Shown here in pieces: positions 8,101 through 63,787 of a DNA stretch of 64,000 bases. Origin of the DNA: Eledone cirrhosa. Lineage: Eukaryota. Position 1 is the stretch's first letter, and each line of letters begins with the position of its first letter. Under the pieces are notes generated by a model. That model saw nothing but the letters and a program-made list of their open reading frames with translations, made no database searches and had not been told where the DNA came from. The stretch is taken from NCBI GenBank assembly GCA_964016885.1, contig OZ024742.1, positions 280,674,001 to 280,738,000 on the forward strand, given 5' to 3'. The translations under genes were made by a program, and so were the position numbers.

Positions 8101-11100
8101 TTACAGGCATATGCTCAGAGTAGGCCCATTCACACGGGCCATTCTTGCCTCTTTCACCCATCTTTCAACAAATTGCTAGGAAGAGAGCACTTCCCTCTCT
8201 ACCCTGATTTTCCTTTTCAAATGAAATTAGAAAAAGTTAATCAGGGCATCACCGAAGAGGTAAGTGCTCGTCTTCAGCACTTTCAAACGCGTCCACCATA
8301 TTATCTCTTTCGCCATGGCTACCAGACAGATAAAAACTGCCTGCCCTTCCCGGCTAAAGGAAGAGGGTGGGGAAATCCTCACCTCCATGCCTGTAGAGTT
8401 TATCCCGAACTGGCAAAGCTCCTCGGTAGCACTGCCAGGCCAGGGATTTCTGGAAGTTGCCCATAGGCCCCGGCCCGAAACTTCTTCCGAAGAAATTGGC
8501 TAGTTGATTTTCGTCGACGCCTAGGGTGTGCCCAAGTACGTCGTTGCGCTTCCTCTCCACTGATCCTCTATAGAAAGCCAAGGTGGAGTTTCCACCAATC
8601 ACATTGCCCGATTAGTGGAGGGCTGTGAGCGCCTGAGGACATTCCAGTCTCCAAGCGCTCCCTCTCGGTCTTCGCTTGACCCAGGACTGCCGCTCCGTCA
8701 AGGAGACGAGCTGGGGAAAGACGCGTCTAGCAAACGGCGACCACACATGATCACCGTCGAGGAAGAGCTGAGGATGTCGTAGACTGAGCGCGTGGCTGCG
8801 CATCATCAGCCGCGGCATGCCCAGCCCTCCATGTAGCGGGTGTTGACAGCAGATGGACCGCCTGCCCATCGGAGCGCGTCCCTTTCACAAAAAGCGAAAG
8901 AGCAAACGCTCCAGCGCAGTCAGGCGAGACTTAGGACAAGGTAGGACGGTCAGGCGGTAGTAGATGATGGACGCGATGTACGCGTGAGCCACTTCCGCTC
9001 GACCTTTCAGGGATAGCTTCATCTCCGCCCATTTCTGGGTGAGAGAAGCCACCCTGCTCGTCACATCGTCCGAGTTTTTGTCCGTCTGGAGGTCCGAACC
9101 GAACCAGATCGCTAGCAATTTAACCGGTCCATCCGTCCGGCGCCCGACGACGGTGTTGGACGGCATGGACCTGCCTCTCCAGGTGCCGAGCTGCAGGCCC
9201 ACCGACTATTCCTGGTTGATCATTGCTCCCGTCACCGCTTTGTATTCTCTTAGTGTAGTGCCGATCGCCTCGATGTGTTTGGCGTTCGACACCACTACGG
9301 TGACATCGTCCGCATATGCTGACACGGATCTTCCGCATCCTAGTTCGCGCGGGACCCCCTTCAACGTCTCCAGTTTGTGCAGTAATGGCTCGAGAGTCAA
9401 TACATACAACATGGACGAGAGGGGACATCCTTGGCGGACTGAGCACATGATGTTGAAGGGTTCCGAAAGGTGGCCATTCACACTCACCACAGAGCAGATG
9501 TCGCTGTGCATGGCAGCGATCCAGCCTCTGAAGACGGGCTCAAAGCCAGCTGCCCTCAGGACTGCCGCCAGATAACGATGCTCGACCATATAGAAAGCAT
9601 TCGACTGATCTAAATTGATCCAGGCCCCACCCGTGCCAGGTTCCCTAGCTACCCTCTCCACCATGTATCGCATGAGGTGGAGGTTGTCGTAGGTGGATCT
9701 GTTTGGGGTGGCGCATGTTTGCGTCTCTCTCACCAGACCACCAACGACAAGCGCCAATCCCTTTGCTAGCACCTGGGCCAAAATCTTGAACTCTGTGTTT
9801 TGCAGGGTTATGGGCCTACTTTATCTATCTTATCCCCCTTGTTCGGATCCTTTCTCAGCAACGCCACCGCTCGTTGGCTCACAGAGCGGGGAATTCTCCT
9901 GTTGCGTTGCCAGTTGCATTAGACGTCCGCCAAGAGGTCTCCGAACAAGTCTGGCATGTGTACGTAAAGTTCGTAGGGCAGACCATCCAAATAGGCGATT
10001 TACCCTTTGTGCAGCCAGTCATTGCATCCAGTACTTTAGCTGATGTTATCGGCTTTTCACAACATTCCGACTCAGTGGCCGAGAGCCGCGGCAGTCCGTC
10101 GAGGTAGCCACTAAAGTCCATCCCGCGATCCGGCCCGCCGCTGCCCTGGATAGCTGGGCTAAGTGTCACTGAAAAGCTTCACACATTTCACCCGGGATCG
10201 AGTAGCATGCCCCCGTTGTGGCCCACCAAAGACCGGATTGTGGCTTTATTGACACAGCGCCCTTTGCCACGCGGGCCCATTGAATACCGTTCGTCCCCAT
10301 GTGTCTGAGAGCATGCATACTAGCTCTGACAACGCAGCCTTCGTGCTTTGCATTGAAGAATTGGTCGAGGGCCTATTTCGCCGCTAGCACGTCGGAATCA
10401 TTGCCTTTACTAAGCGGCTCGTCTAATGTTCTAACTAGTTCTCCCTCTGATCTATTTTTCTCTATTGCTAACGCCTTACTAAACCTAATGGACTTTATTC
10501 TAATCGCTCTCTTCAGAGCAAACCATCATTTGTTGTTGACGATGGCCCCCGTCAACGCCCGCTTAACTAGTTCGCTAATCCGGTCTCTCTAGGCCTTACG
10601 AGCTGTAACGACGCATTTAGCTTCCAGTAGCCGAGTCTCTGTCTATGAAGACTATCTAAGTCAACCTCACTGATCATGAATTACTGGTCCGTGTAGTCGA
10701 CTATTTTCAATTGTGGACAGCCTTTTCTAGACCTATCTATTTCCCTACGAAATATCTATCTAGATATGATCTGGATGACCCGACGCGGTTTGTCCATGTC
10801 CACATTAGCACAATCGGGAAATTCAGACGGTACCTATCAGACAGTTGAAACCGTCTGAGCAGGTTTCCGAGGCTTTACACCCTCCTCCCCTATCCGCTAA
10901 TCCCACACAGTTCAAGCGTGCATCCAAGATCCCGTTCCAGTCGTCCACTAACACTAAAGAGCGGGACATTCCAAGAAAGGTCTCCAGACGCCGGAAGAAA
11001 TCCAGCCGCCCTGCTCCTGTCGGGGCTTAGACGGCCTCTAGTCTGAACGATTGCCCGTCTACGCTGGTCACGTGCAGCACAACCAGCTTACCTTCTGGGT

Positions 11101-11360
11101 CCACTAAGATGGCCTGTATGGCGAGATCCAAACCTCTCTGAAAAAGCACAGCGACTCCTCCACCGATCTAGGACGGCTGGGAGATGCGTACACATCGTAG
11201 CCGACGAAGATCGGTGCGAAGGCTCCTGCTTCGGAGATTCTGGTCTCGCTGATGGCCACCACATCTATGTTTATTGACATGAGGTCATTGAGTAGGTGGC
11301 CCTGCTTCCATGACGACCCCAGGCCACGCACATTTTGCTGCCTATTCTGAGTAAGGTCAT
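8101..11360 (-). pseudogene. LINE ORF2 (AP endonuclease + reverse transcriptase), frameshifted
   Basis: APE: MTLLRIGS/NVRGL...INIDVVAISETR. RT: INLDQSNAF, SVRQGCPLSSMLYVL, AYADDVTV. Also LSLKGRAEV; ends ...NGPTLSICL*. Many stops and frameshifts. Confidence 0.9.
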
Positions 11361-11395
11361 GTTGAAAAGGAGTGGGAAAGATGGGAACGACCACT

Positions 11396-13743
11396 TACCT
11401 CACTTCTTGTGGAGGAAGGATGGTTTTTCCGTCCTTCTCACTGATTGTGGCCCCCTCCGGAAGGCTGTCTTTATAAATCCTCCTGGAGATGTTTGTCGGA
11501 AGTCTCCGATGTCCTCGGGGAATTTTAATTTGTGTGTCGTGTACGATTTCTGTGTGATGCGAGTGAATTGTATGTGTAGGGGTGGTGTGGATTTTTGGGA
11601 TATTGTATAGTCTTTTACTGTGATGCTGGGGTTATGTTGGATGTAGTGTAATAATTGGTTGCTGTTCAAATTTAATTGTTTCTACGTTAGGCACAAGGCC
11701 AGCAATAACCCAATGTATTACTGGTACTTTATTTTATCGACCCCGTAAGGATGAAAGGCAAAGTTAACCTCGGCGGGATTTGAACTCGGAATGGCAAGGG
11801 CCGTAACTCTATGCGTCAAATCATGGCATCCGACCCTCTACTAATACTGTCAAACCACCGGTTGTTGTTCAAAGTTAATGCTGTGTAGTGTGTATCGTTT
11901 TGGTTGCTTTGTTTTGTTTGCATTTGTTGTGGGTTTGTTTCTGTTTCGCTTGTTGATGATTTTTGTGGTGTTGGTGATGGTGGTGTTGAGGTTAATGATG
12001 GTGATGGTGTTGTTGTTTGTGATGATGGAGCTGGTAATGCTGGTGTTGGTGGTGAGCTAGCTGTCTTAACTTTTTTGTAAGTTTCTTTGTTTCGCTCACA
12101 TTTCGTTTTTGGAGGGCGAAGGAAGTGGATTTTCTTTCTTTTTGGTTTAAATTTTTTTTTGCAGATACAGTTTCCCACTGCTCCTCGTGGTCACAATCTG
12201 TCTCAAGTTGCGATAGGTCGGGGAGTGAACAATCCTCCACAGGCGTTGGTTTTGGTTGTGGCGTGGTGGATGGTGGAGGCCTTGGTGCTAATTCTGACGC
12301 GGTGGGAGGCGGTGGTGGTGGTGTTGGTTTTGCTACTGTTGCTGCTACAGATGCTGGGTTTGTTGCTGCTACAGTTGCTTCTGTTGTTGCTGCTACAGTT
12401 GTTGCTCTCATTTCTGCTGTTGGTTTTGATGGTTGAGTCACTGGGGTGGGTAGGAGAGGTGGCCTCAACTTTTTAGCCTGAGGGCAGAAAGCCTTTACGT
12501 GGGTTCCTTCGCCACAAACGACACACCTAGGCCTTCTACTTCCCTCAACGATTACGATGATGTGGTTGCCGCCATTGAGGTCTATCACCTCTGGAATTTC
12601 CTGTATGTTTTTTGGTTGTTAGGATCAGGAGCTCCATCCCAGATGCGGACATGTCTCCTGTTTTACTTGTATCACCTTAATTACTTTAGTGTCGGGCTCG
12701 ATGTCGGCGAGGACGGCAGCCATTAGCCAAGGAATTTCAATGGCCGGCTGAATGGCCTGGGTGACCCTGATCCTTACCAGACCCTGACCACAATAGCTTG
12801 TGACGAGTGTGAACTCGTCACTTTTTAATGGGGCCATGGAGTACTCTCTGGCTTCATGTGGGGTTCCAAAGAACACGTCCACGGTTCCATATTTTTGCCC
12901 ATGTTTTATGTGGGTGTTTTGAGCCCACACATGTCCCAAATCTTTTTGTATCTGGGGCTCGGATGCCTGTTCCATTCGGTGCGTATTAATATTTATCGTC
13001 CGATATGACACGGTGTATAGGCGCAGATGCTCCATGGTATTAGCTGGGGGATGAGGCTGACCCTGTAACCATATTTTTTTATCATTTGCTTGGTTTCATT
13101 CAATTCTTCCTGGCTTACCGCAACCGTTTCATTTTTGTTTGCCGCTTTAGCAAACGACACATTAGATTTTACGCTGGTGTTGATGTTGTTGTTGTTATTC
13201 TTATTGTTGCTGTTATTGTTATTTTTGTTATTATTATTTTTAGTTTTAGTTGTGGTGGTGGTGGTGGTGGTGGTGGTGGTATCAGTGGCGTCCTGCGTGG
13301 AAAAGTCGATTTCGGAGAATCCATTTCGATATCACGAGAACAAATTTATTTTTGTTTCTGTTGTTGCTGTTGTGGTGGTGGTATCAGTGCTGTTGGCTGT
13401 TCTTTTTGACATTGTGGTGGTGGGGATGGCGGCTTTAACACCTGTAAACATTGGTAATAGCGTGAAATCCATGTCTGTATGAGACAAATATAAATAAGTG
13501 CCATTGCTATTAATTATATTTTCAGTGTTGGCATTTTTTTCTGTTGTCGGTATTTTGGATGTGACTGTTATTGTTGTAGTTGGTGTGGTAATTTTTTAAA
13601 AATTAGTGTTCTCAGTATTGTTGTCTTTGTTCACGTTTTTTGTGGTGATGTTTGTGTATTAATTTCTGTAACCCTCCTCTCAACTTTTATGCCGTTGTTA
13701 CACGACAGCAGACATATTGCTGGAGAGGGCGTGGCTCAGCCAT
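11396..13743 (-). pseudogene. LINE ORF1 (gag-like) remnant with zinc knuckle
   Basis: RPRCVVCGEGTHVKAFC = CX2CX4HX4C, with Pro/Thr-rich linkers; interrupted by a SINE at 11677-11859. Confidence 0.75.
11677..11859 (-). mobile_element. tRNA-derived SINE (octopus-like family) inserted in LINE ORF1
   Basis: Core ggtactttattttatcgacccc...ggatgaaaggcaaagttaacctcggcgggatttgaactc. 20 bp TSD ggttgYtgttcaaaKttaat at 11657-11676 and 11860-11879. Confidence 0.9.
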
Positions 13744-24792: not shown

Positions 24793-24887
24793 TTCGTTTT
24801 TGAATCGGATATTTTTAATGAATTGAAGTTAATTTACATTGGCAGCATGACACTCCAAAAGTATACAATATATATATATATATATAT

Positions 24888-25113
24888 ATTAGAAAGTGAG
24901 GGTTTTTTTACAAAATGAAAAATAACCGAGGTGTCCTACACGAGTGAAAGTATAAAGAAAAAGAGATGAAATCGAAAATGCAACTGGAGTCTTATTTTTT
25001 TTTAAAATATATATACTTATTTGGTTCCTTTACCGGTTTCGCAGTTCTTCTGCTTTTCAAAAGGTGAGTTAAGACTCCAGTTGCATTTTCGATTTCATCT
25101 CTTTTTCTTTATA
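24888..25113. mobile_element. Foldback element with HHR in its loop
   Basis: 44 bp perfect inverted arms at 24951-24994 and 25070-25113; a relative lacking the HHR lies at 62328-62487. Confidence 0.75.
25027..25064 (-). ncRNA. Minimal hammerhead with U3:A8 core variant
   Basis: Minus strand: cctt TTGAAAA gcag aagaa ctgc GAAAC cg GTA aagg. Confidence 0.75.
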
Positions 25114-30870: not shown

Positions 30871-31428
30871 TTATACCGTGATAACGCCCTCCTCACTCTC
30901 TAGTATAAAAAGTGCAATATAGAAAGAACTAGGAAGCAATTACGTAGGTTCTTTAAAAACTTTAATCTAAGTATTACCATAGATGCAAATGATAAAACAG
31001 TAAACTTCCTAGACGCCACCCTTGACCTAGAAAGTAAAACATTTGCACCCTACCATAAACCTAACGATAGACTAACATATGTAAACGCCAGCTCTAACCA
31101 CCCCAAATCAGTCCTAAACGCTATTCCCAAGGGGGTCTCTAATAGAATTAGCAGACTGTCCTGTAATGAGAGTATCTTCAACTCCAATGCAGAGTATTAT
31201 GACAAGGCCCTAGCAGAATCTGGTTACGGGAGTAGATTATCATATATACATAAGGACTCTCAAACCATGAGTGTGAAACCTACCAACATAATCACACATA
31301 GTATGGCCACAAAGCCTAACCAACTTAGAGGCAAGAATAATAGTAAAAACCCAAATGGCGGTAACCTAGCTAAATGTAAACCACGTAAAGACAATACTAG
31401 AGGCCCCACCACAACTCTAAAACAGTAA
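30871..31428 (+). pseudogene. PLE reverse transcriptase C-terminal/thumb remnant
   Basis: LYRDNALL*...KTVNFLDATLDL...PYHKPNDRLTYVNASSNHPKSVLNAIP...NRISRLS; YRDD appears as YRDN and there is an in-frame stop. Confidence 0.85.
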
Positions 31429-31439
31429 ATGATCACGCC

Positions 31440-32357
31440 ATGAATATAAACCATCCGGGCTTAAGCAAAACAGACAACGCCACTAACGTTAATAACGGAA
31501 ACCTACAAAATAGTACGCCCAGTAGCGAGACTCACCCCACAGATAAGAAAACTAGAAGAAGGAAAAACATGTATTTTAACCCACCTTTTAACTCTGAAGT
31601 CCTCACTAACCTCCCCAGAGTATTCTTCTCATTATTGGAAAAAAACTTCCCACCAGGCAATAGATATCGCAACATAATTAACAAAAACGTAATTAAATTA
31701 TCCTATTCGACCACACCTAACCTCGCATCACACCTAGCACGCACGAACATTAGGAGAACTAAGGAAGGCTTCGAAGCAATTAAAATGGCAGTTAACCACC
31801 AGCAACCGACTACACTGGAAAATGGGCAACATAATAGCATCAATGAACCATCTAGTGATATAGAGGCACCTAGTGATAATGCTAGTAACCAAACTTCGGG
31901 AGGTAAGCTAACTAATCGAACCCGCAGTTGCAACTGTAGGCGGAGTAGTAACTGTCCCCTAAGGGGGGATTGCCTCATGAAAAACATAGTATATGCATGT
32001 GACGTAACCACACACAACTCTACCAAAACATATATAGGAGCAACGTCCAATACATTTAAAACTAGATTTAACGCGCATATATACACATTTAGACACGACA
32101 GACATAAGAATGCCACCTCACTGGCGGGATACATCTACTTCTTAAAAAATAATAGTACCCCATACAAACTTTTTTGGAGTAAGCTTACTAGATCCACGCC
32201 ATACCGACCGCAGAGTGGAAGTTGTGACCTGTGTTTACTGGAATGCCATGCCATAATACACTCTAAACTGAACCTGCTTAACGGGAAATCGGAAATTTTC
32301 TCCTCATGCCAACACAAAATCCTGAGTTCCTTCTTCTATTTTAAACCTAGCACATAG
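31440..32357 (+). CDS. PLE linker plus C-terminal GIY-YIG endonuclease (open part of a disrupted ORF)
   Basis: RRKNMYFNPPFN...SYS, CNCRRSSNCPLRGDCL, NIVYACDV...YIGATSNTFKTRFNAH, CDLCLLE. Confidence 0.85.
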   Translation: MNINHPGLSKTDNATNVNNGNLQNSTPSSETHPTDKKTRRRKNMYFNPPFNSEVLTNLPRVFFSLLEKNFPPGNRYRNIINKNVIKLSYSTTPNLASHLARTNIRRTKEGFEAIKMAVNHQQPTTLENGQHNSINEPSSDIEAPSDNASNQTSGGKLTNRTRSCNCRRSSNCPLRGDCLMKNIVYACDVTTHNSTKTYIGATSNTFKTRFNAHIYTFRHDRHKNATSLAGYIYFLKNNSTPYKLFWSKLTRSTPYRPQSGSCDLCLLECHAIIHSKLNLLNGKSEIFSSCQHKILSSFFYFKPST

Positions 32358-36066: not shown

Positions 36067-36155
36067 GATACATAGAGACAGATAGACACAAACAGATTAG
36101 TTGGAGTGAAATTGTAGTAAGTTAGTTAATTTCCATAATTCTCTTATTTTACGTC

Positions 36156-36190
<35 letters not shown>

Positions 36191-36196
<6 letters not shown>

Positions 36197-36300
36197 CTGT
36201 AGAAATAAAGACAGTAACTCGTGTATTTAAAATAACAATAACTTATACGTTATTGTTATTTTAAATACACGTGTTACTGTCTTTATTTCTACAGATATTA
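36191..36300. repeat. 110 bp hairpin nested in (TA)n
   Basis: taatatctgtagaaataaagacagtaac...aataac / gttatt...gttactgtctttatttctacagatatta. Confidence 0.85.
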
Positions 36301-36303
36301 TAT

Positions 36304-36345
<42 letters not shown>

Positions 36346-36393
36346 GACGTAAAATAAGAGAATTATGAAAATTAACTTACTTACTACAATTTC

Positions 36394-36474
36394 ACTCCAA
36401 CTAATTAGTTTCTGTAAGGGAATAAATATGGTCACGTAAGGTAATCATAGAGAATCCTTACGTCATCAGGGAGT
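36394..36474 (-). ncRNA. Type I hammerhead ribozyme, unit 1
   Basis: Minus strand: actcc CTGATGA c gtaagg...ccttac a GAAAC taatta GTT ggagt. Confidence 0.85.
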
Positions 36475-36921
36475 CTATCCTCAGCTAAGTTCCTAGGCAA
36501 TGCGTGGATACAGGGAACTCATATAAAAATAATTCAGTGGATGGAAAAAAGCGAGCCAGGACAAAATTCCAGGACATTGAAAAAATTCACTGCCTACTTG
36601 GTCAGTGTCAAATTCAAAAGAATCAATCACGTGACACTGAGGTTAATCAGTGAGGAGAGGGATAGTAATAAGACAGGGGCCTGACCACTACCATGATTCA
36701 TAGTAGTAATTTCGGCAAATTTTTAATCAACAAATAATTTGGAGATAATTATAAAGAATTAGTATATCTACCAACATATGTATACAGATGCATACCTATG
36801 CTAGCAAATATATAGGTTTTGTCGTAGTAACTTTGTATTTCAATGCAAGCGGATGCAGAACAATTATATGAAAGACGTAAAATAAGAGAATTATGAAAAT
36901 TAACTTACTTACTAAAATTTC

Positions 36922-37003
36922 ACTCCAACTAATTAGTTTCTGTAAGGGTATAATATATGTTTACGTAACGTAATCATAGAGAACCCTTACGTCATCAGGA
37001 AGT
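36922..37003 (-). ncRNA. Type I hammerhead ribozyme, unit 2
   Basis: Minus strand: acttc CTGATGA c gtaaggg...cccttac a GAAAC taatta GTT ggagt. Confidence 0.85.
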
Positions 37004-37450
37004 CTATTCTCAGCTAAGTTCCTAGGCAATGCGTGGACACAGGGAACTCATATAAAAATAATTCAGTGGATGGAAAAAAGTGAGCCGGGACTAAATTCCA
37101 GGACATTGAAACAATTCACTGCCTACTTGGTCAATGGCAAATTCAAAAGAATCAATCACGTGACACTGAGGTTAATCAGTGAGTAGTGGGATGATAATAA
37201 GATAGGGGCCTGACCACTACCATGAACCATAGTAGTAATTTCGGCAAATTTTTACTCAACAAATAATTTGGAGATAATTATAAAGAATTAGTATATCTAC
37301 CAACATATGTATACAGATGCATACCTTTATAATTGTGAATTTGTTCAATGTCCTAGAATTTAGTCACCGCTCGCTTTATTCCATCCACTGAATTATTTTT
37401 ATATGAGTTCCCTGTGTCCACGCATTGCCTAGGAACTTAGCTGAGAATAG

Positions 37451-37531
37451 ACTCCCTGATGACGTAAGTATTCTCTATGATTACGTTACGTAACCATATT
37501 TATTCCCTTACAGAAACTAATTAGTTGGAGT
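37451..37531 (+). ncRNA. Type I hammerhead ribozyme, inverted copy
   Basis: actcc CTGATGA c gtaag...cttac a GAAAC taatta GTT ggagt. Confidence 0.85.
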
Positions 37532-37730
37532 GAAATTTTAGTAAGTAAGTTAATTTTCATAATTCTCTTATTTTACGTATTTCATATAATTGTTCTGCAT
37601 CCCCTTGCATTGAACTACAAAGTTACTATGACAAAACCTATATATTTGCTAGCATAGGTATGCATCTGTATACATATGTATATAACGATATGTGCTTTTA
37701 GGATTCTCTAGAGAGGCCGGAGGATGGGTA

Positions 37731-37775
37731 AATATTGCTGATGAGATGTAATAACATCGAAACTAGTCCAATATT
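37731..37775 (+). ncRNA. Canonical minimal hammerhead ribozyme
   Basis: aatattg CTGATGA gatgt aata acatc GAAAC ta GTC caatatt; perfect 7 bp stem I, 5 bp stem II and GUC site. Confidence 0.92.
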
Positions 37776-37989
37776 CCTGTCTGGCTCTCTGGAGAATAGA
37801 GGAAAGGTGTTTCCTCGAAAACCAGTATGACTCTAAAAACCGGTTTGTCTGTGTGTTTACATACGGACTAGCTGAACACTCACAGTAAAGTGTCCAGTGA
37901 AAAGCTCGGTACATGTACATATGTATACGTGTGTGTATTTATATGCATACTAGTATTTCAGTATACATATGTGGATGTACACTTTTAAC

Positions 37990-38098
<109 letters not shown>

Positions 38099-50076: not shown

Positions 50077-51250
50077 CTAAGGCGGGTAAAATTCCCGAGA
50101 TCCATGGACGAGCTCTCTCCAGCGGTCTATGTCCCTCATTATCGCTGCCATATCCTGCATCTCCAACAGACCAGTGTCTGTCCTTAGGGCATCAACATAT
50201 GTTAACCTTGGTCTTCCTCTTCTAGTGTGTCCATGTAGGGGCTCCCAAAGGAGCACTGAGTGCAATGTCAACTCTGGATGTCGGTGAGCATGTCCAGCCA
50301 ACCTCAGTCTCCTCTGTGTCACTTTTGAGCTGACTTTTGGGATGCTCCCATACAGCTCTGAGTTTTTCATCCTCAGTGTATACTGATTAATGTTCAGAGC
50401 CATCCTCAGCATTCTCGTATAGCACCCATCCACCATGTGAGTGAGTCTCTTGGTCAGTGTCCAAGTCTCAGACCCATACAGCAGCACAAACTCCACTACA
50501 GCAATGAAGAGGCGGATTTTCAGGTCTCTACGAAGGTCCGACTTCCACACCGATCTCAAGCTGTGACCCGCCGCCCAGGCATTGCTCTTCCTCTCAACCA
50601 CATCATCTTCCGTATTCCCAATCTTTGCTCCCAAATACAGGAAGTCCTCAACCAATTCCAGCGGCTTCCCGCCTACATTAGTGATCCCCTCTGGCTTCTC
50701 AACATTCTCTACCAGATATTTTGTTTTAGTCTCATTCATTCTCAGCCCCACACTCATCGACACAGTCTCAACCTCCCGCATCAAATCATCTGCCTCCTTC
50801 ACTATATTTGTCACCAAAACTATGTCGTCGGCAAATTCAGCATCCGATACCTTTTTTCGCCCGAACTCTCCTCCTCTGAGCCGGTGCTACAGTAAAGCCA
50901 GAGTCCTGGTGTTTCTCCAGTGCAAGGCGCATATAATAGTCCACTACGATGATAAAAAGGTAGGGAGCCAATGTATCTCCCTGGAGCACTCCAGCCAGTA
51001 TCTCAAAGAACTCTGTCATCCCATCAGGTGTAATGACTTGGGCTTTGGTGTTGGTGTAGAGCAGTGATATCAGGTCCACTATCCTCTTGGGGATTCCATA
51101 AGCCTGTAAGATCTTCATCAGGCAGTAACGGTCCACAGAATCAAAGGCCTTCCTAAAGTCAATGAAAACCATGACCGCAGGAAGGCATTTTGCTCTAGCT
51201 TCCTCTAATATCCTCCTCAGCATCAGGATGTGACTGGTGGTTGATCTACC
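50077..51250 (-). mobile_element. 5'-truncated RTE-type LINE (RT C-terminal half)
   Basis: FIDFRKAFDSV, GVLQGDTLAPYLF, EFADDIV, FLYLG, LLYGSETW; the stop codon runs into a (TAGA)n tail. Confidence 0.92.
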
Positions 51251-51287
<37 letters not shown>

Positions 51288-52040
51288 CAGTGGCGGACTG
51301 GGACTAAATATATTGGTTGCCAGGAGAGGAAGGGGGCTCACCCACATATAGAATGCTAACAATTAATTTTTATAATTAATAAATAACATTTTCAAAAAAT
51401 ACGTTAAGTGGAAACAAAACAGTGCACTCAAATGTTTGCAGAAAAAAATATTACCTTCTCCAATAAAAAAATATTACGTATTTTGCGAAATCCAGAGATT
51501 TTCAATAATGTCTTTTGGTCTTTCACACTCACTCAATATACATACATACGTATATATATGTATATATATATATATATATATGATCAACCTGTTAGCTCTA
51601 TCGTTACTTTGGTATATTATTGTGTGTTAGATTTTGCCTCCCACAATGTTCAATTTGTCAAGCTGTTTAAACGTATGTCATTACTCTAAGGTCCTAACTT
51701 ATCGAGTGCTTTGCTAATTCATCATTTCATATAAGTAGGCTGAATTTGCTTGCAAACCGCCAGAGATTCGATTTTACTAAATTTCCAATTATATATATAT
51801 ATATATAGTTTTGCGACCTTTTTGATATGAAATCGTATGTCGAAACAAATATTGTTATACTTGGGAGGGTCATATTTGTGTAAAAATATTGCCAGAATTG
51901 ATAACAGAACACACTCACTGTATAACAGAAAACAGTGTATTTCAATAACCTTTCAGCTTGGCACAAGCTAATGCCATAACGCGAGTGTTCTGTTATCAAT
52001 TCTGGCAATATTATTACACAAATATGACTCTCCCCAAGTA

Positions 52041-52365: not shown

Positions 52366-52704
52366 GCTTGTGTATATGTGTCTATATATGTATGTTTCAA
52401 TACACTAAGCTTTAGATTTAATAGAATGTACAACGCATTCCAGCTATTTGCACTATCGTATATATTTTATTTCTATTATTTGCCTGTGGAGTTGGTTCAC
52501 CAAATGATTTGCTTAATTGTTTAATTTATTATTTTTTTAGTATATTCTTTCTCTTAGACTTCAGGTATGTTTTGAAAGCTAAGCATTGGCCCCTAAAATA
52601 CTACAGCGGGCCCTGCAATGCTAATATGGGCTCCTGCAATGCTACCGAGGGTCCCCTGGTGCGCACTTGCCAGGGGGAAACATGGGAACCTGGCCAGTCC
52701 GCCA

Positions 52705-52707
<3 letters not shown>
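51288..52707. mobile_element. Non-autonomous DNA transposon (hAT/Tip100-like TIR) with nested insertions
   Basis: 14 bp TIR CAGTGGCGGACTGG / CCAGTCCGCCACTG embedded in (TA)n; a second right end lies at ~54150-54325. Confidence 0.7.
51851..52048. repeat. Foldback of the ttatacttgggagggtcat family
   Basis: ~60 bp inverted arms; family also at 24830-24870, 26208-26250, 41140 and 52122-52315. Confidence 0.75.
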
Positions 52708-52778
<71 letters not shown>

Positions 52779-52947
52779 AATTAATATCTAGTAACATATA
52801 TATATACATACAGATGCATATCAATGCTAGCAAATATATAGGTTTTGTCTTAGTAACTTTGTGGTTCAATGCATGGGGTTGCAGAACAATAATATGAGAG
52901 ACGTAAAATAAGAAAATTATAAAATTAACTTACTTACTAAAATTTTA

Positions 52948-53027
52948 CTCCTAACTAATTAGTTTCTGAAATGGAATAAATATACTTTCCGAAGAAAATA
53001 TTGAGAAGCATTTCGTCGTCAGGGAAG
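52948..53027 (-). ncRNA. Type I hammerhead ribozyme
   Basis: Minus strand: cttcc CTGACGA c gaaatg...catttc a GAAAC taatta GTT aggag. Confidence 0.8.
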
Positions 53028-53770
53028 ACTATTCTCAGCTAAGTATGCAGGCAAAGCGTGGACTCTGGAAACTTATTCAAAAATAATTCAGTGGATAGAA
53101 AATAGCAAAGCGTGGACTGAATTCCTAGCCATTGAGAAAACCACTGCCTCTGCGTCGGTGGCAAATTCAAAAAGAATCAATCACGTGACATCGAGGTCAA
53201 TCAGTGGAAAGTGGTTTGTTAATAAGACAGCGGCCTGCCTGCTACCATAGCAGCAGTCTTGGCCTATATTGCTCGACAAATAATTTGGAGATAATTATAA
53301 AGAATTAATATCTAGTAACATATATATACATACAGATGCATATCAATGCTAGCAAATATATAGGTTTTGTCTAAGTAACTTTGTGGTTCAATGCATGGGG
53401 TTGCAGAACAATATTATGAGAGACGTAAAATAAGAAAATTATAAAATTAACTTACTTACTAAAATTTTGTATATATATGTTACTAGATATTAATTGTTTA
53501 TAATTATCTCCAAATTATTTGTCGAGTAATATTGGCCAAGACTGCTGCTATGGTAGCAGGCAGGCCGCTGTCTTATTAACAGACCACTTTCCACTTATTG
53601 ACCTCGATGTCACGTGATTGATACTTTTTGAATTTGCCACCGACGCAGAGGCAGTGATTTTCTCAATGGCTAGGAATTCAGTCCACGCTTTGCTATTTTC
53701 TATCTACTGAATTATTTTTGAATAAGTTTCCAGAGTCCACGCTTTGCCTGGATACTTAGCTGAGAATAGT

Positions 53771-53850
53771 CTTCCCTGACGACGAAATGCTTCTCAATAT
53801 TTTCTTCGGAAAGTATATTTATTCCATTTCAGAAACTAATTAGTTGGGAG
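53771..53850 (+). ncRNA. Type I hammerhead ribozyme
   Basis: cttcc CTGACGA c gaaatg...ttc ttcg gaa...catttc a GAAAC taatta GTT gggag. Confidence 0.85.
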
Positions 53851-53892
53851 TGAAATTTTAGTAAGTTAATTTTATAATTTTCTTATTTTACG

Positions 53893-53923
<31 letters not shown>

Positions 53924-54325
53924 AATATAAATTATCGAGATATATATACAAATATTATTTGTTTGTTAAAAAAATCAAATTAAATTAATTCTACAGGTAA
54001 GCGCACATAGGAATAATAAGGTTTTACCAAAGATCCAGAACATTGACAAGACAACCCTAAATATGACTCACAGCTCTAGGAAAGCCATGAACGTCACCAC
54101 CACATCTTTTTAAATTTGATTTTGAATGTAGGTTTATAATTATTAATTTTCATTATACTTTTAGCTCTATTTTAGCCTTCAGGTATATTTTGAAAGCAAA
54201 GCATTGGCCCCTAAATTGCTACAGTGGGCCATGCAATGCTATTGTTGGCATCTGCAATGCTTCCGTGGGCCTCCTGGGGCCTACTTGCCATTGGGCCACC
54301 TGGCAACTTGGCCAGTTCGCCACTG

Positions 54326-54412
<87 letters not shown>

Positions 54413-62845: not shown

Positions 62846-63787
62846 CACATTTGAGCTGACTTTTGGGAGGCTTCCATATAGCTTTGATTTTTCATCCTCA
62901 GTGTATACTGATTAATGTTCAGAGCCATCCTCAGCATTCTCGTGTAGCACCCATCCACCATGTAAGTGAGTTTCTTGGTCAGTGTCCAAGCCCCAGACCC
63001 GTGCAGCAGCAAAGAATCCACTACTGAAATGTAGAGGCGGATTTTCAGGTCTTTACGAAGGTCCGACTTCCACACCTATCTCAAGCTGTGGCACGCCGCC
63101 CAGGCTTTGCTCTTCCTCTCAACCACATCATCTTCCGTATTCAAAATCTCTGCTCCCAAATACAGGAAGTCCTCAACCAATTCTTGCGGCTTTCCGCCTA
63201 CATTAGTGATCCCCTCTCGCTTCTCAACATTTTCTACCAGATATTTTGTTTTAGTCTCATTCATTCTCAGCCCCACACTCATCGACACAGTCTCAACTTC
63301 CTGCATCAAATCCTCTGCCTCCTTCACTGTATTTGTCACCATTACTATGTCGCCGGCAAATTCAGCATCCGATATCTTTTTCGCCTTAACTCTCCTGCTC
63401 TGAGCCGGTGCTACAGTAAAGCCAGAGTCCTGCTGTTTCTCCAGTGCAAGGTGCATAGAATAGTCCACTACGATGATAAAAAGGTAGGGAACCAATGTAT
63501 CTCCCTGGATCACTCCAGCCAGTATCTCAAAGAACTCAGTCATCCCATCAGAGTTGACTGAGGTTAGCTGGACATGCTCCCCGACATCCAGAGTTAACAT
63601 TGCACTCAGTGCTCCTGTGGGAGCCCCTACATGGATACACTGGAAGAAGAAGACCAGGGTTAACGTATGTTGATGCGCTAAGGACAGATACTAGTCTGTT
63701 GGAGACGCAGAACATTGCAGCGATAATGAAGGACAGAGACCGCTGGAGAGAACTCGTCCATGGATCTCGGGAATTTTACCCGCCCTA

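Follow-up and report, generated by a model that had tools for sequence, protein, structure and literature searches.

Organisation of the locus

The window analysed here is a single stretch of 64,000 nucleotides of the Eledone cirrhosa genome, and it contains two insertions of a low-GC, non-coding tandem repeat with a unit of about 525 bp (521-559 bp as measured, ~520-560 bp as quoted). We focus on insertion B, whose minus arm consists of a tail, a full unit and a short piece, and stands head-to-head with an inverted, 5'-truncated plus arm. Among the open reading frames of the window, none of at least 150 aa overlaps insertion B or insertion A. The two insertions are laid out as follows, where profile positions are those of the family profile.

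52708..52775: (TA)n run, the target microsatellite, adjoining the tail of insertion B
52769..53902: insertion B, subfamily g7, one insertion, defined by profile search
52890-52769, minus strand: insertion B, profile 1-118
53412-52892, minus strand: insertion B, profile 1-527
53467-53415, minus strand: insertion B, profile 473-526
53468-53902, plus strand: insertion B, profile 79-527
53899..53948: (AT)n run at the opposite end of insertion B
53776 (plus) and 53022 (minus): C3 of the hammerheads of insertion B
36087..37680: insertion A, subfamily g16, same family, about 80% identical to B
36469 (minus), 36998 (minus) and 37456 (plus): C3 of the hammerheads of insertion A

Several other elements lie in the window. 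A near-perfect palindrome of ~100 bp, flanked by TA runs, separates the two arms of insertion A (36200-36300), and a different, canonical-looking type I hammerhead directly adjoins this insertion (37692-37990, plus strand, core 37738); it has a 7-bp helix I, a 5-bp helix II and a palindromic helix III, and its repeat is both tandem and inverted in locus L087. Two similar copies of another repeat (~170 bp) stand some distance either side of insertion B, at 52540-52710 and 54160-54330, each terminating at a TA run. A hammerhead with a U3-A8 core covariation (TTGAAAA) is found at ~24870-25075 on the minus strand (core 25060), and corresponds to the 3' repeat in an RT-GIY-YIG family represented by loci L212, L213, L220 and L222. 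At 30904-32357 on the plus strand there is a Penelope-like ORF remnant in two frames with a GIY-YIG-like end, from a family with many candidates, among them copies with open frames of ~850 aa. Finally, fragments resembling ORFs of non-LTR retrotransposons occupy 9206-13095, 50077-51337 and 63076-63690, all on the minus strand.

The repeat family in the genome

In the 3.0-Gb genome, a core-anchored motif pattern has 10,388 exact matches and its reversed control has none; a 15-mer anchor placed in the flank only has 8,005 matches (control, 2). We fetched 180 partly overlapping loci, in which the profile search gives 572 matches, or 415 distinct segments. Rfam at the gathering score has no relevant match in the window, and at E-values up to 10 the nine matches within 52700-54000 include no hammerhead, so that motifs of this kind are undercounted. 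A metagenome scan for the hammerhead motif gives no match. Contigs from three runs of a single sample, whose kind is unknown, contain only variants of the family and provide no evidence on expression.

Covarying hammerhead families within one genome are already in print, and Lunse et al. reportedly described dimeric hammerhead variants of Penelope-like elements (PLEs). We found no description of the ~525-bp family itself in the literature, where supplements, Dfam or Repbase may hold similar variants.

The hammerhead motif

The motif has the features of a type I hammerhead, namely a core of CUGANGA ... GAAA ... UH, helices I, II and III, and ends in helix I. Its parts in the intact copy, and the second copy of insertion B, are listed below.

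53762..53851, plus strand: intact copy of the type I hammerhead motif, with GAGAA (53762-53766) as candidate pseudoknot strand
53770..53775, plus strand: 5' strand of helix I, partner strand 53846-53851, five pairs including one T.G
53776..53783, plus strand: core box CUGANGA (N7 = C), followed by the base left unpaired between 9 and 10.1
53784..53830, plus strand: helix II, with a 6-bp stem 53784-53789 / 53825-53830
53831..53845, plus strand: core box GAAA with the extra A before it, helix III with its palindrome AC-TAATTA-GT, and U17
52947..53036, minus strand: second hammerhead copy, with the first pair of helix I disrupted by a private G-to-A at 52952

The minimum-energy structure of 53755-53870 is the hammerhead three-way fold, at a z-score of only -0.5, and the helix II segment folds at z -3.9. 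The internal loop of helix II is pyrimidine-rich and contains TTCTC (53791-53795). In the 53 kb copies the distal hairpin (53797-53816) is closed by C(UUCG)G, which is the TTCG tetraloop that the first-pass annotation had reported. In helix I, the outer pair is mismatched in subfamily g7. By standard hammerhead numbering, cleavage is predicted after 53845, at a GUU triplet; GUU is a weaker cleavage triplet.

As read from its sequence, the motif is unusual in its 35-nt helix II insert, the extra A before GAAA, the GUU site and a candidate pseudoknot, as well as in having no Rfam match. The insert is retained, short-spacer motifs numbering only 45 genome-wide, nearly all of them sporadic deletions. 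A second abundant hammerhead family in the genome (loci L251-L270; 3,065 pattern matches) has a GUC site, inverted arms and TA ends, and an unpaired A flanks its short helix II on both sides. The profile of the ~525-bp family has no homology to the 20 loci of this second family, which suggests that the extra base before GAAA recurs in the genome.

The window itself allows a comparison of two subfamilies. The 53.8 kb copy reads CTGACGA-C-GAAATG ... CATTTC-A-GAAACTAATTAGTT-GGGAG, and the three copies at 36-37 kb have CTGATGA-C-GTAAG(G/T) ... CCTTAC-A-GAAACTAATTAGTT-GGAGT. The first-pass annotation had taken these differences as evidence that selection maintained the fold. The letters of the change at position 7 (CTGATGA to CTGACGA) are present, and stem II has indeed changed on both strands at two pairs, T-A becoming A-T and G-C becoming T-A. 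The stem I change that was put beside it, from actcc/ggagt to cttcc/gggag, has the right letters at the 53.8 kb copy only, since in the 52.95 kb copy the G directly after the cleavage position is replaced by A (52952), and it is no pair of substitutions: in the alignment one base is inserted in each strand, yielding a T.G wobble, and the outer A-T pair is lost to an A-to-T in the 5' strand. Likewise, GAAACTAATTAGTT is indeed common to both subfamilies, but an identical core is not above chance from two subfamilies alone (P = 0.19 for 11 identical core bases at the flank divergence of 54/387 sites). The window alone thus showed core conservation no better than chance, whereas the genome-wide sample does better, and both the two-family argument and the stem I example are weaker than originally stated.

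Outside the motif, the flank contains a strongly conserved block around GTCACGTGATTGATT, with a CACGTG palindrome (profile ~220-245; 53600-53625 in the window), for which an internal promoter element is possible. Pol III A and B boxes in the unit have loose one-mismatch matches only and were not accepted. When the whole unit is folded as a circle, the sense strand has z-scores of -1.1 to -7.1 and an energy below that of the antisense strand in 8 of 9 cases, a weak result obtained with 12 shuffles each, in which the antisense strand folds too.

Covariation on the subfamily tree

For the genome-wide analysis, 157 near-full units were clustered by their flanks only into 18 groups, to which 225 copies were assigned (5 were not). 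The 14 groups with at least 3 copies were tested, omitting g3, g5, g12 and g18 (7 copies). Covariation was assessed by tree simulation and a branch-coincidence calculation rather than by R-scape; the latter calculation used 16 groups, g3 and g5 being added.

On the flank-only tree, parsimony assigns no step to any of the 11 core sites, which are identical in all 14 groups, none to the 8 helix III sites, and none to U17 or the extra A; the extra A, GAAA, the helix III palindrome and U17 are the same in 14 of 14 subfamily consensuses. The free position 7 takes two steps, the flank 326 steps in 398 sites (0.82 per site), the insert 64 in 37 and helix II 11 in 12. The core of the consensuses therefore does not mutate as freely as the flanks (0 steps in 11 sites vs 0.82 per flank site). 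At the rate of invariance of flank columns (51%), the 21 invariant positions of core and helix III have P ~8e-7 if sites are assumed independent.

Although helix II changes about as fast as the flanks, none of its 84 cells is broken, compared with a mean of 14.9 in neutral simulation. None of 3000 neutral runs had no broken cell together with at least 2 extra Watson-Crick types, of which 4 are observed. Pair 2 goes from T-A to C-G, from T-A to A-T and from A-T to G-C, and so takes all four Watson-Crick forms; pair 5 goes from G-C to T-A twice, and pair 3 gains G.T. In each of the five double changes at pairs 2 and 5, both strands change on the same branch, for which the chance is ~4e-6 from branch lengths. 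The two events at pair 5 could be one event spread by recombination. Covariation across many copies is thus found, and with it the earlier proposal that the RNA structure was maintained during replication is supported.

Two further checks were made. A blind scan of the whole unit ranked helix II first. In 18 representative copies taken singly, pairing reaches 99.1% in helix II and 87.8% in the distal hairpin, against 30-48% in slid controls, and 4 of the 5 distal hairpin pairs have changed on both sides; of the five measures in this 18-copy test, three exceeded every one of 500 shuffles and two did not (175/500 and 358/500).

The constraint has limits. By an eye count, 41 of the 87 one-sided T.C matches in helix II belong to a small, dispersed subfamily with an extra T, forming a bulge or a U.C pair, and the remaining 46 are about as frequent as the 39 single-sided G.A matches, a neutral background level. 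Mismatches of the bulge or U.C kind are also seen in helix II of g12 and g18 (3 copies, outside the tree test). In helix I, a one-sided insertion is tolerated in g10 and g13, ahead of the two-sided forms in g7, g8 and g6.

Candidate pseudoknot and tail hairpin

Upstream of helix I, GAGAA is the same in 13 of 14 groups, as is TTCTC in the internal loop of helix II, and in g8 the two have changed together, to GAAAA and TTTTC; the G-C form is present in 209 of 234 copies and the A-T form in 12. The GAGAA strand can alternatively pair downstream of the cut site. Given this invariance and one compensatory event, we put the odds of a five-pair pseudoknot at about even.

The 3' tail of the unit contains a further structure, just ahead of the commonest insertion end.

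52784..52837, minus strand: long G.U-rich hairpin of the tail
53308-53359, minus strand: second copy of the tail hairpin

Across 20 pairs and 15 groups (300 cells), this hairpin has 214 Watson-Crick pairs, 75 G.U, 3 A.C and 8 others. The excess of G.U over A.C fixes the functional strand. The hairpin may be a recognition signal for the RT.

Where selection acts

Private mutations of individual copies show a different pattern from the subfamily consensuses. In 87 flank-anchored copies, the core carries 10 in 957 positions (1.04%) and the flank 341 in 27,974 (1.22%; P = 0.76), and 9 of 522 terminal cells of helix II are broken. Both insertions in the window carry stem-breaking private changes. 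Since private mutations are equally frequent in core and flank, selection acts on the replicating masters and not on inserted copies, and for the same reason the earlier wording that structure was "maintained while the element replicated" is apt.

A satellite-like array on contig C5, tens of kb long (~84.66-84.72 Mb; L051 and L058-L060), has decaying ribozyme cores. The core is intact in 10 of its 23 units, which share core changes and are not independent of one another, as compared with 92 of 104 dispersed units. The fold is therefore kept in retrotransposing lineages and lost elsewhere. The tree resolves this as a natural experiment, in which core and pairing are needed in the copying lineages and are dispensable in inserted copies and in the DNA-amplified array; that they are needed only where copying continues argues that the ribozyme serves replication and is not a mere passenger. 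We consider selection on the hammerhead fold in master copies to be very likely, and cleavage to be the likely selected function.

Insertion structure and candidate mobilisers

Insertions of the family are 5'-truncated head-to-tail runs in (TA)n with scattered starts and, usually, an inverted arm. At 96 loci, the arms are divergent in 48, convergent in 2, of a single orientation in 42 and complex in 4. Tails end at profile 108-122 in 86 of 97 cases, and the examples shown enter TA or TC/TA repeats. Among 302 unit ends at profile 520-528, 96 lead directly into TA, 188 into the next unit and 18 elsewhere. There is no spike of 5' ends at the cut site, with 5 of 136 falling within profile 465-471. 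Because insertion ends and cut site do not coincide, and 5' ends are not concentrated at the latter, the template would be a circle or an uncut multimer.

The anatomy is the one seen in Penelope-like elements: head-to-tail partial tandems, 5' truncation, an inverted arm, a one-sided tail and a microsatellite target. The missing feature of an autonomous element is an RT/GIY-YIG ORF, which neither insertion has. GIY-YIG matches are many in the genome, and frames joining RT, a CxxxxCxxC linker and GIY-YIG reach 1096 aa; judged by the linker motif, as given in the part of PMC8557442 used here, these elements appear to be of Neptune type. The family profile shows no homology to 50 GIY-YIG loci, where the two matches are separate copies of the family, and has no match in 25 loci of the PLE family represented in the window; this search for an autonomous parent sampled a small part of 10,596 candidates.

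Repeat arms adjoin truncated Neptune-type PLE copies of three families (L054, L037 and L052; also L004, L040 and L063). At L054:2200 the junction runs directly from an inverted arm into truncated PLE coding DNA, with a 2-base overlap and no TA run, and at L037:2147 and L052:2264 the arm joins a truncated PLE via a TA run. The L054 junction is a lead rather than a proof, because the repeat and PLEs both target (TA)n. Overall, the insertion anatomy points to Neptune proteins as the mobiliser.

Proposed mechanism and alternatives

In our judgement, the repeat is quite probably a retroelement of the non-autonomous Penelope-like kind, acting in the manner of a retrozyme. New subfamilies would then be founded only by copies with RNA that folds as a hammerhead, and selection would act on the element's own replication and not on the host. 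Transcription of tandems would give multimeric RNA to be cut by the ribozyme, probably as a dimer formed through the 12-nt palindrome, and a host ligase would probably close the unit-length RNA into a circle. A Neptune-type RT/GIY-YIG protein would prime reverse transcription at a nicked (TA)n site, at one of two TA-bearing points of the template ~60 and ~180 nt downstream of the cut site, and synthesis would pass the cut site to produce more-than-unit cDNA. This model is as proposed in the relevant parts of PMC4209133 and PMC7229834. For the circular form of the template, the chances fall a little short of even.

More tentative, with the balance against all its parts holding at once, is a joint reading in which a retrozyme-type circular RNA with an undescribed hammerhead architecture would be moved by Neptune-clade Penelope proteins and the mechanism would be recorded in the genome. 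This reading would include two internal TA priming points, read-through of the cut site, inverted arms and chimeras with the RNA of the mobilising RT made by template switch. The architecture would have an unpaired base on both sides of the helix II foot, the 35-nt insert, a five-pair pseudoknot between internal loop and helix I, and a GUU within the 12-nt dimer palindrome, and standard models would miss more than 10,000 copies. The subfamily series would, in addition, retain intermediates with a bulge that lie between compensated states.

It is unlikely that the hammerhead-shaped fold is selected mainly as a signal for RT binding or dimerisation, or as a very slow ribozyme, with uncleaved multimers as templates. 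The invariant GUU that lengthens the palindrome to 12 nt, the extra A beside G12, the long insert and the copies that read through the cut site all agree with such a role, as does the low in vitro cleavage of metazoan PLE hammerheads, for which the authors allow other functions in the part of PMC4209133 used here. On the other hand, 11 catalytic-core bases are invariant and the free position 7 is variable, as is expected of catalysis, and the candidate tertiary pseudoknot would favour fast cleavage, following the portion of PMC3088659 consulted. A DNA-level origin of the double changes, through template switching between quasi-palindrome arms or gene conversion, is very improbable. In three of the five double changes both sides underwent a transversion, which would require a mismatched intermediate, and a hairpin-forming single-stranded cDNA would be present during insertion; nevertheless, this origin is largely refuted by the terminal-cell counts, the kept wobbles and the invariant core. 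Besides the 9 broken cells in 522, 10 two-sided cells are states fixed in other groups, G.U wobbles are retained, the C.A base mismatch and the internal loop are never "repaired", single-sided G.A (39) and T.C (46, with the bulged subfamily removed) persist at background level, and an invariant unpaired core would be left unexplained.

The remaining two alternatives concern the copies themselves. The tandem units, the one long array on C5 and the invariance of half of the flank columns could be ascribed to satellite-like DNA amplified by unequal exchange, with conservation due to shared ancestry and chance. This is extremely doubtful, because the dispersed copies, found on many contigs, show 5' truncation, arms in inverted orientation and fixed 3' ends, chance poorly accounts for the 21 invariant positions under the independence assumption given above, and the sole DNA-amplified array has lost the core. 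Host selection on copies co-opted as RNA elements has hardly any probability left: it could appeal to the high copy number and to nothing specific, and is contradicted by private core mutations at the flank rate and by the stem-breaking private changes in both window insertions, which rule it out for the bulk of copies and not for single loci. For the preferred reading, a non-autonomous Penelope-like element working like a retrozyme, the subfamilies are natural compensatory variants ready for assay. The sections of PMC8557442 and PMC7229834 considered here leave open the role of hammerheads in Penelope-like elements and the enzyme that moves animal retrozymes.

Comparison with known systems

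The following comparisons refer to the parts of the cited papers that deal with each feature. PLE hammerhead families are described as rich in compensatory changes and low in in vitro activity (Cervera and de la Pena 2014, PMC4209133). The present motif resembles them in the unpaired base between 9 and 10.1, the G10.1-C11.1 pair, the palindromic helix III and a helix II at least as long as helix I. Unlike the consensus given there, in which GAAA directly follows C11.1, it has an invariant A between C11.1 and G12; it also differs from the hammerheads described in that source in the structured helix II insert of ~35 nt, the invariant GUU, the candidate pseudoknot and the ORF-less tandem unit. 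Beyond the analysis in those parts of the paper, covariation is here placed on a tree and set against the neutral decay of copies.

Non-LTR retrozymes are given as repeats of 150-450 bp with canonical hammerheads, for which PLEs are candidate mobilisers (Cervera and de la Pena 2020, PMC7229834). Like the metazoan ones, the present repeat is non-autonomous, ORF-less and low in GC, forms tandems, and has one type I hammerhead per folded unit. Unlike them, it has a unit above 150-450 bp and a non-canonical, PLE-type hammerhead, and shows the PLE hallmarks of inverted arms, a one-sided tail and (TA)n targets. Metazoan retrozymes are reported there as expressed in linear and circular RNA.

With Neptune-clade PLEs (Craig et al. 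2021, PMC8557442) the repeat shares partial tandems, an inverted 5'-truncated copy, a tail at one end and microsatellite targeting, and, like non-autonomous Chlamys elements such as MRC1 in the same source, it forms head-to-tail multicopy insertions. Its tail of ~116 bp is longer than the 30-40 bp stated for the elements covered there. The non-autonomous Chlamys elements generally resemble the 3' end of their partners, while the present repeat matched no sampled autonomous family. In the pseudoknotted hammerheads of Perreault et al. (2011, PMC3088659), a Watson-Crick contact joins the helix I side to loop II, as in the five-pair pseudoknot of human C10orf118; the contact in the present repeat is similar, but is a candidate and would be formed with an internal loop. 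In conclusion, the repeat lacks two of the retrozyme features and fits best among the non-autonomous Penelope-like elements, as one with a variant hammerhead.
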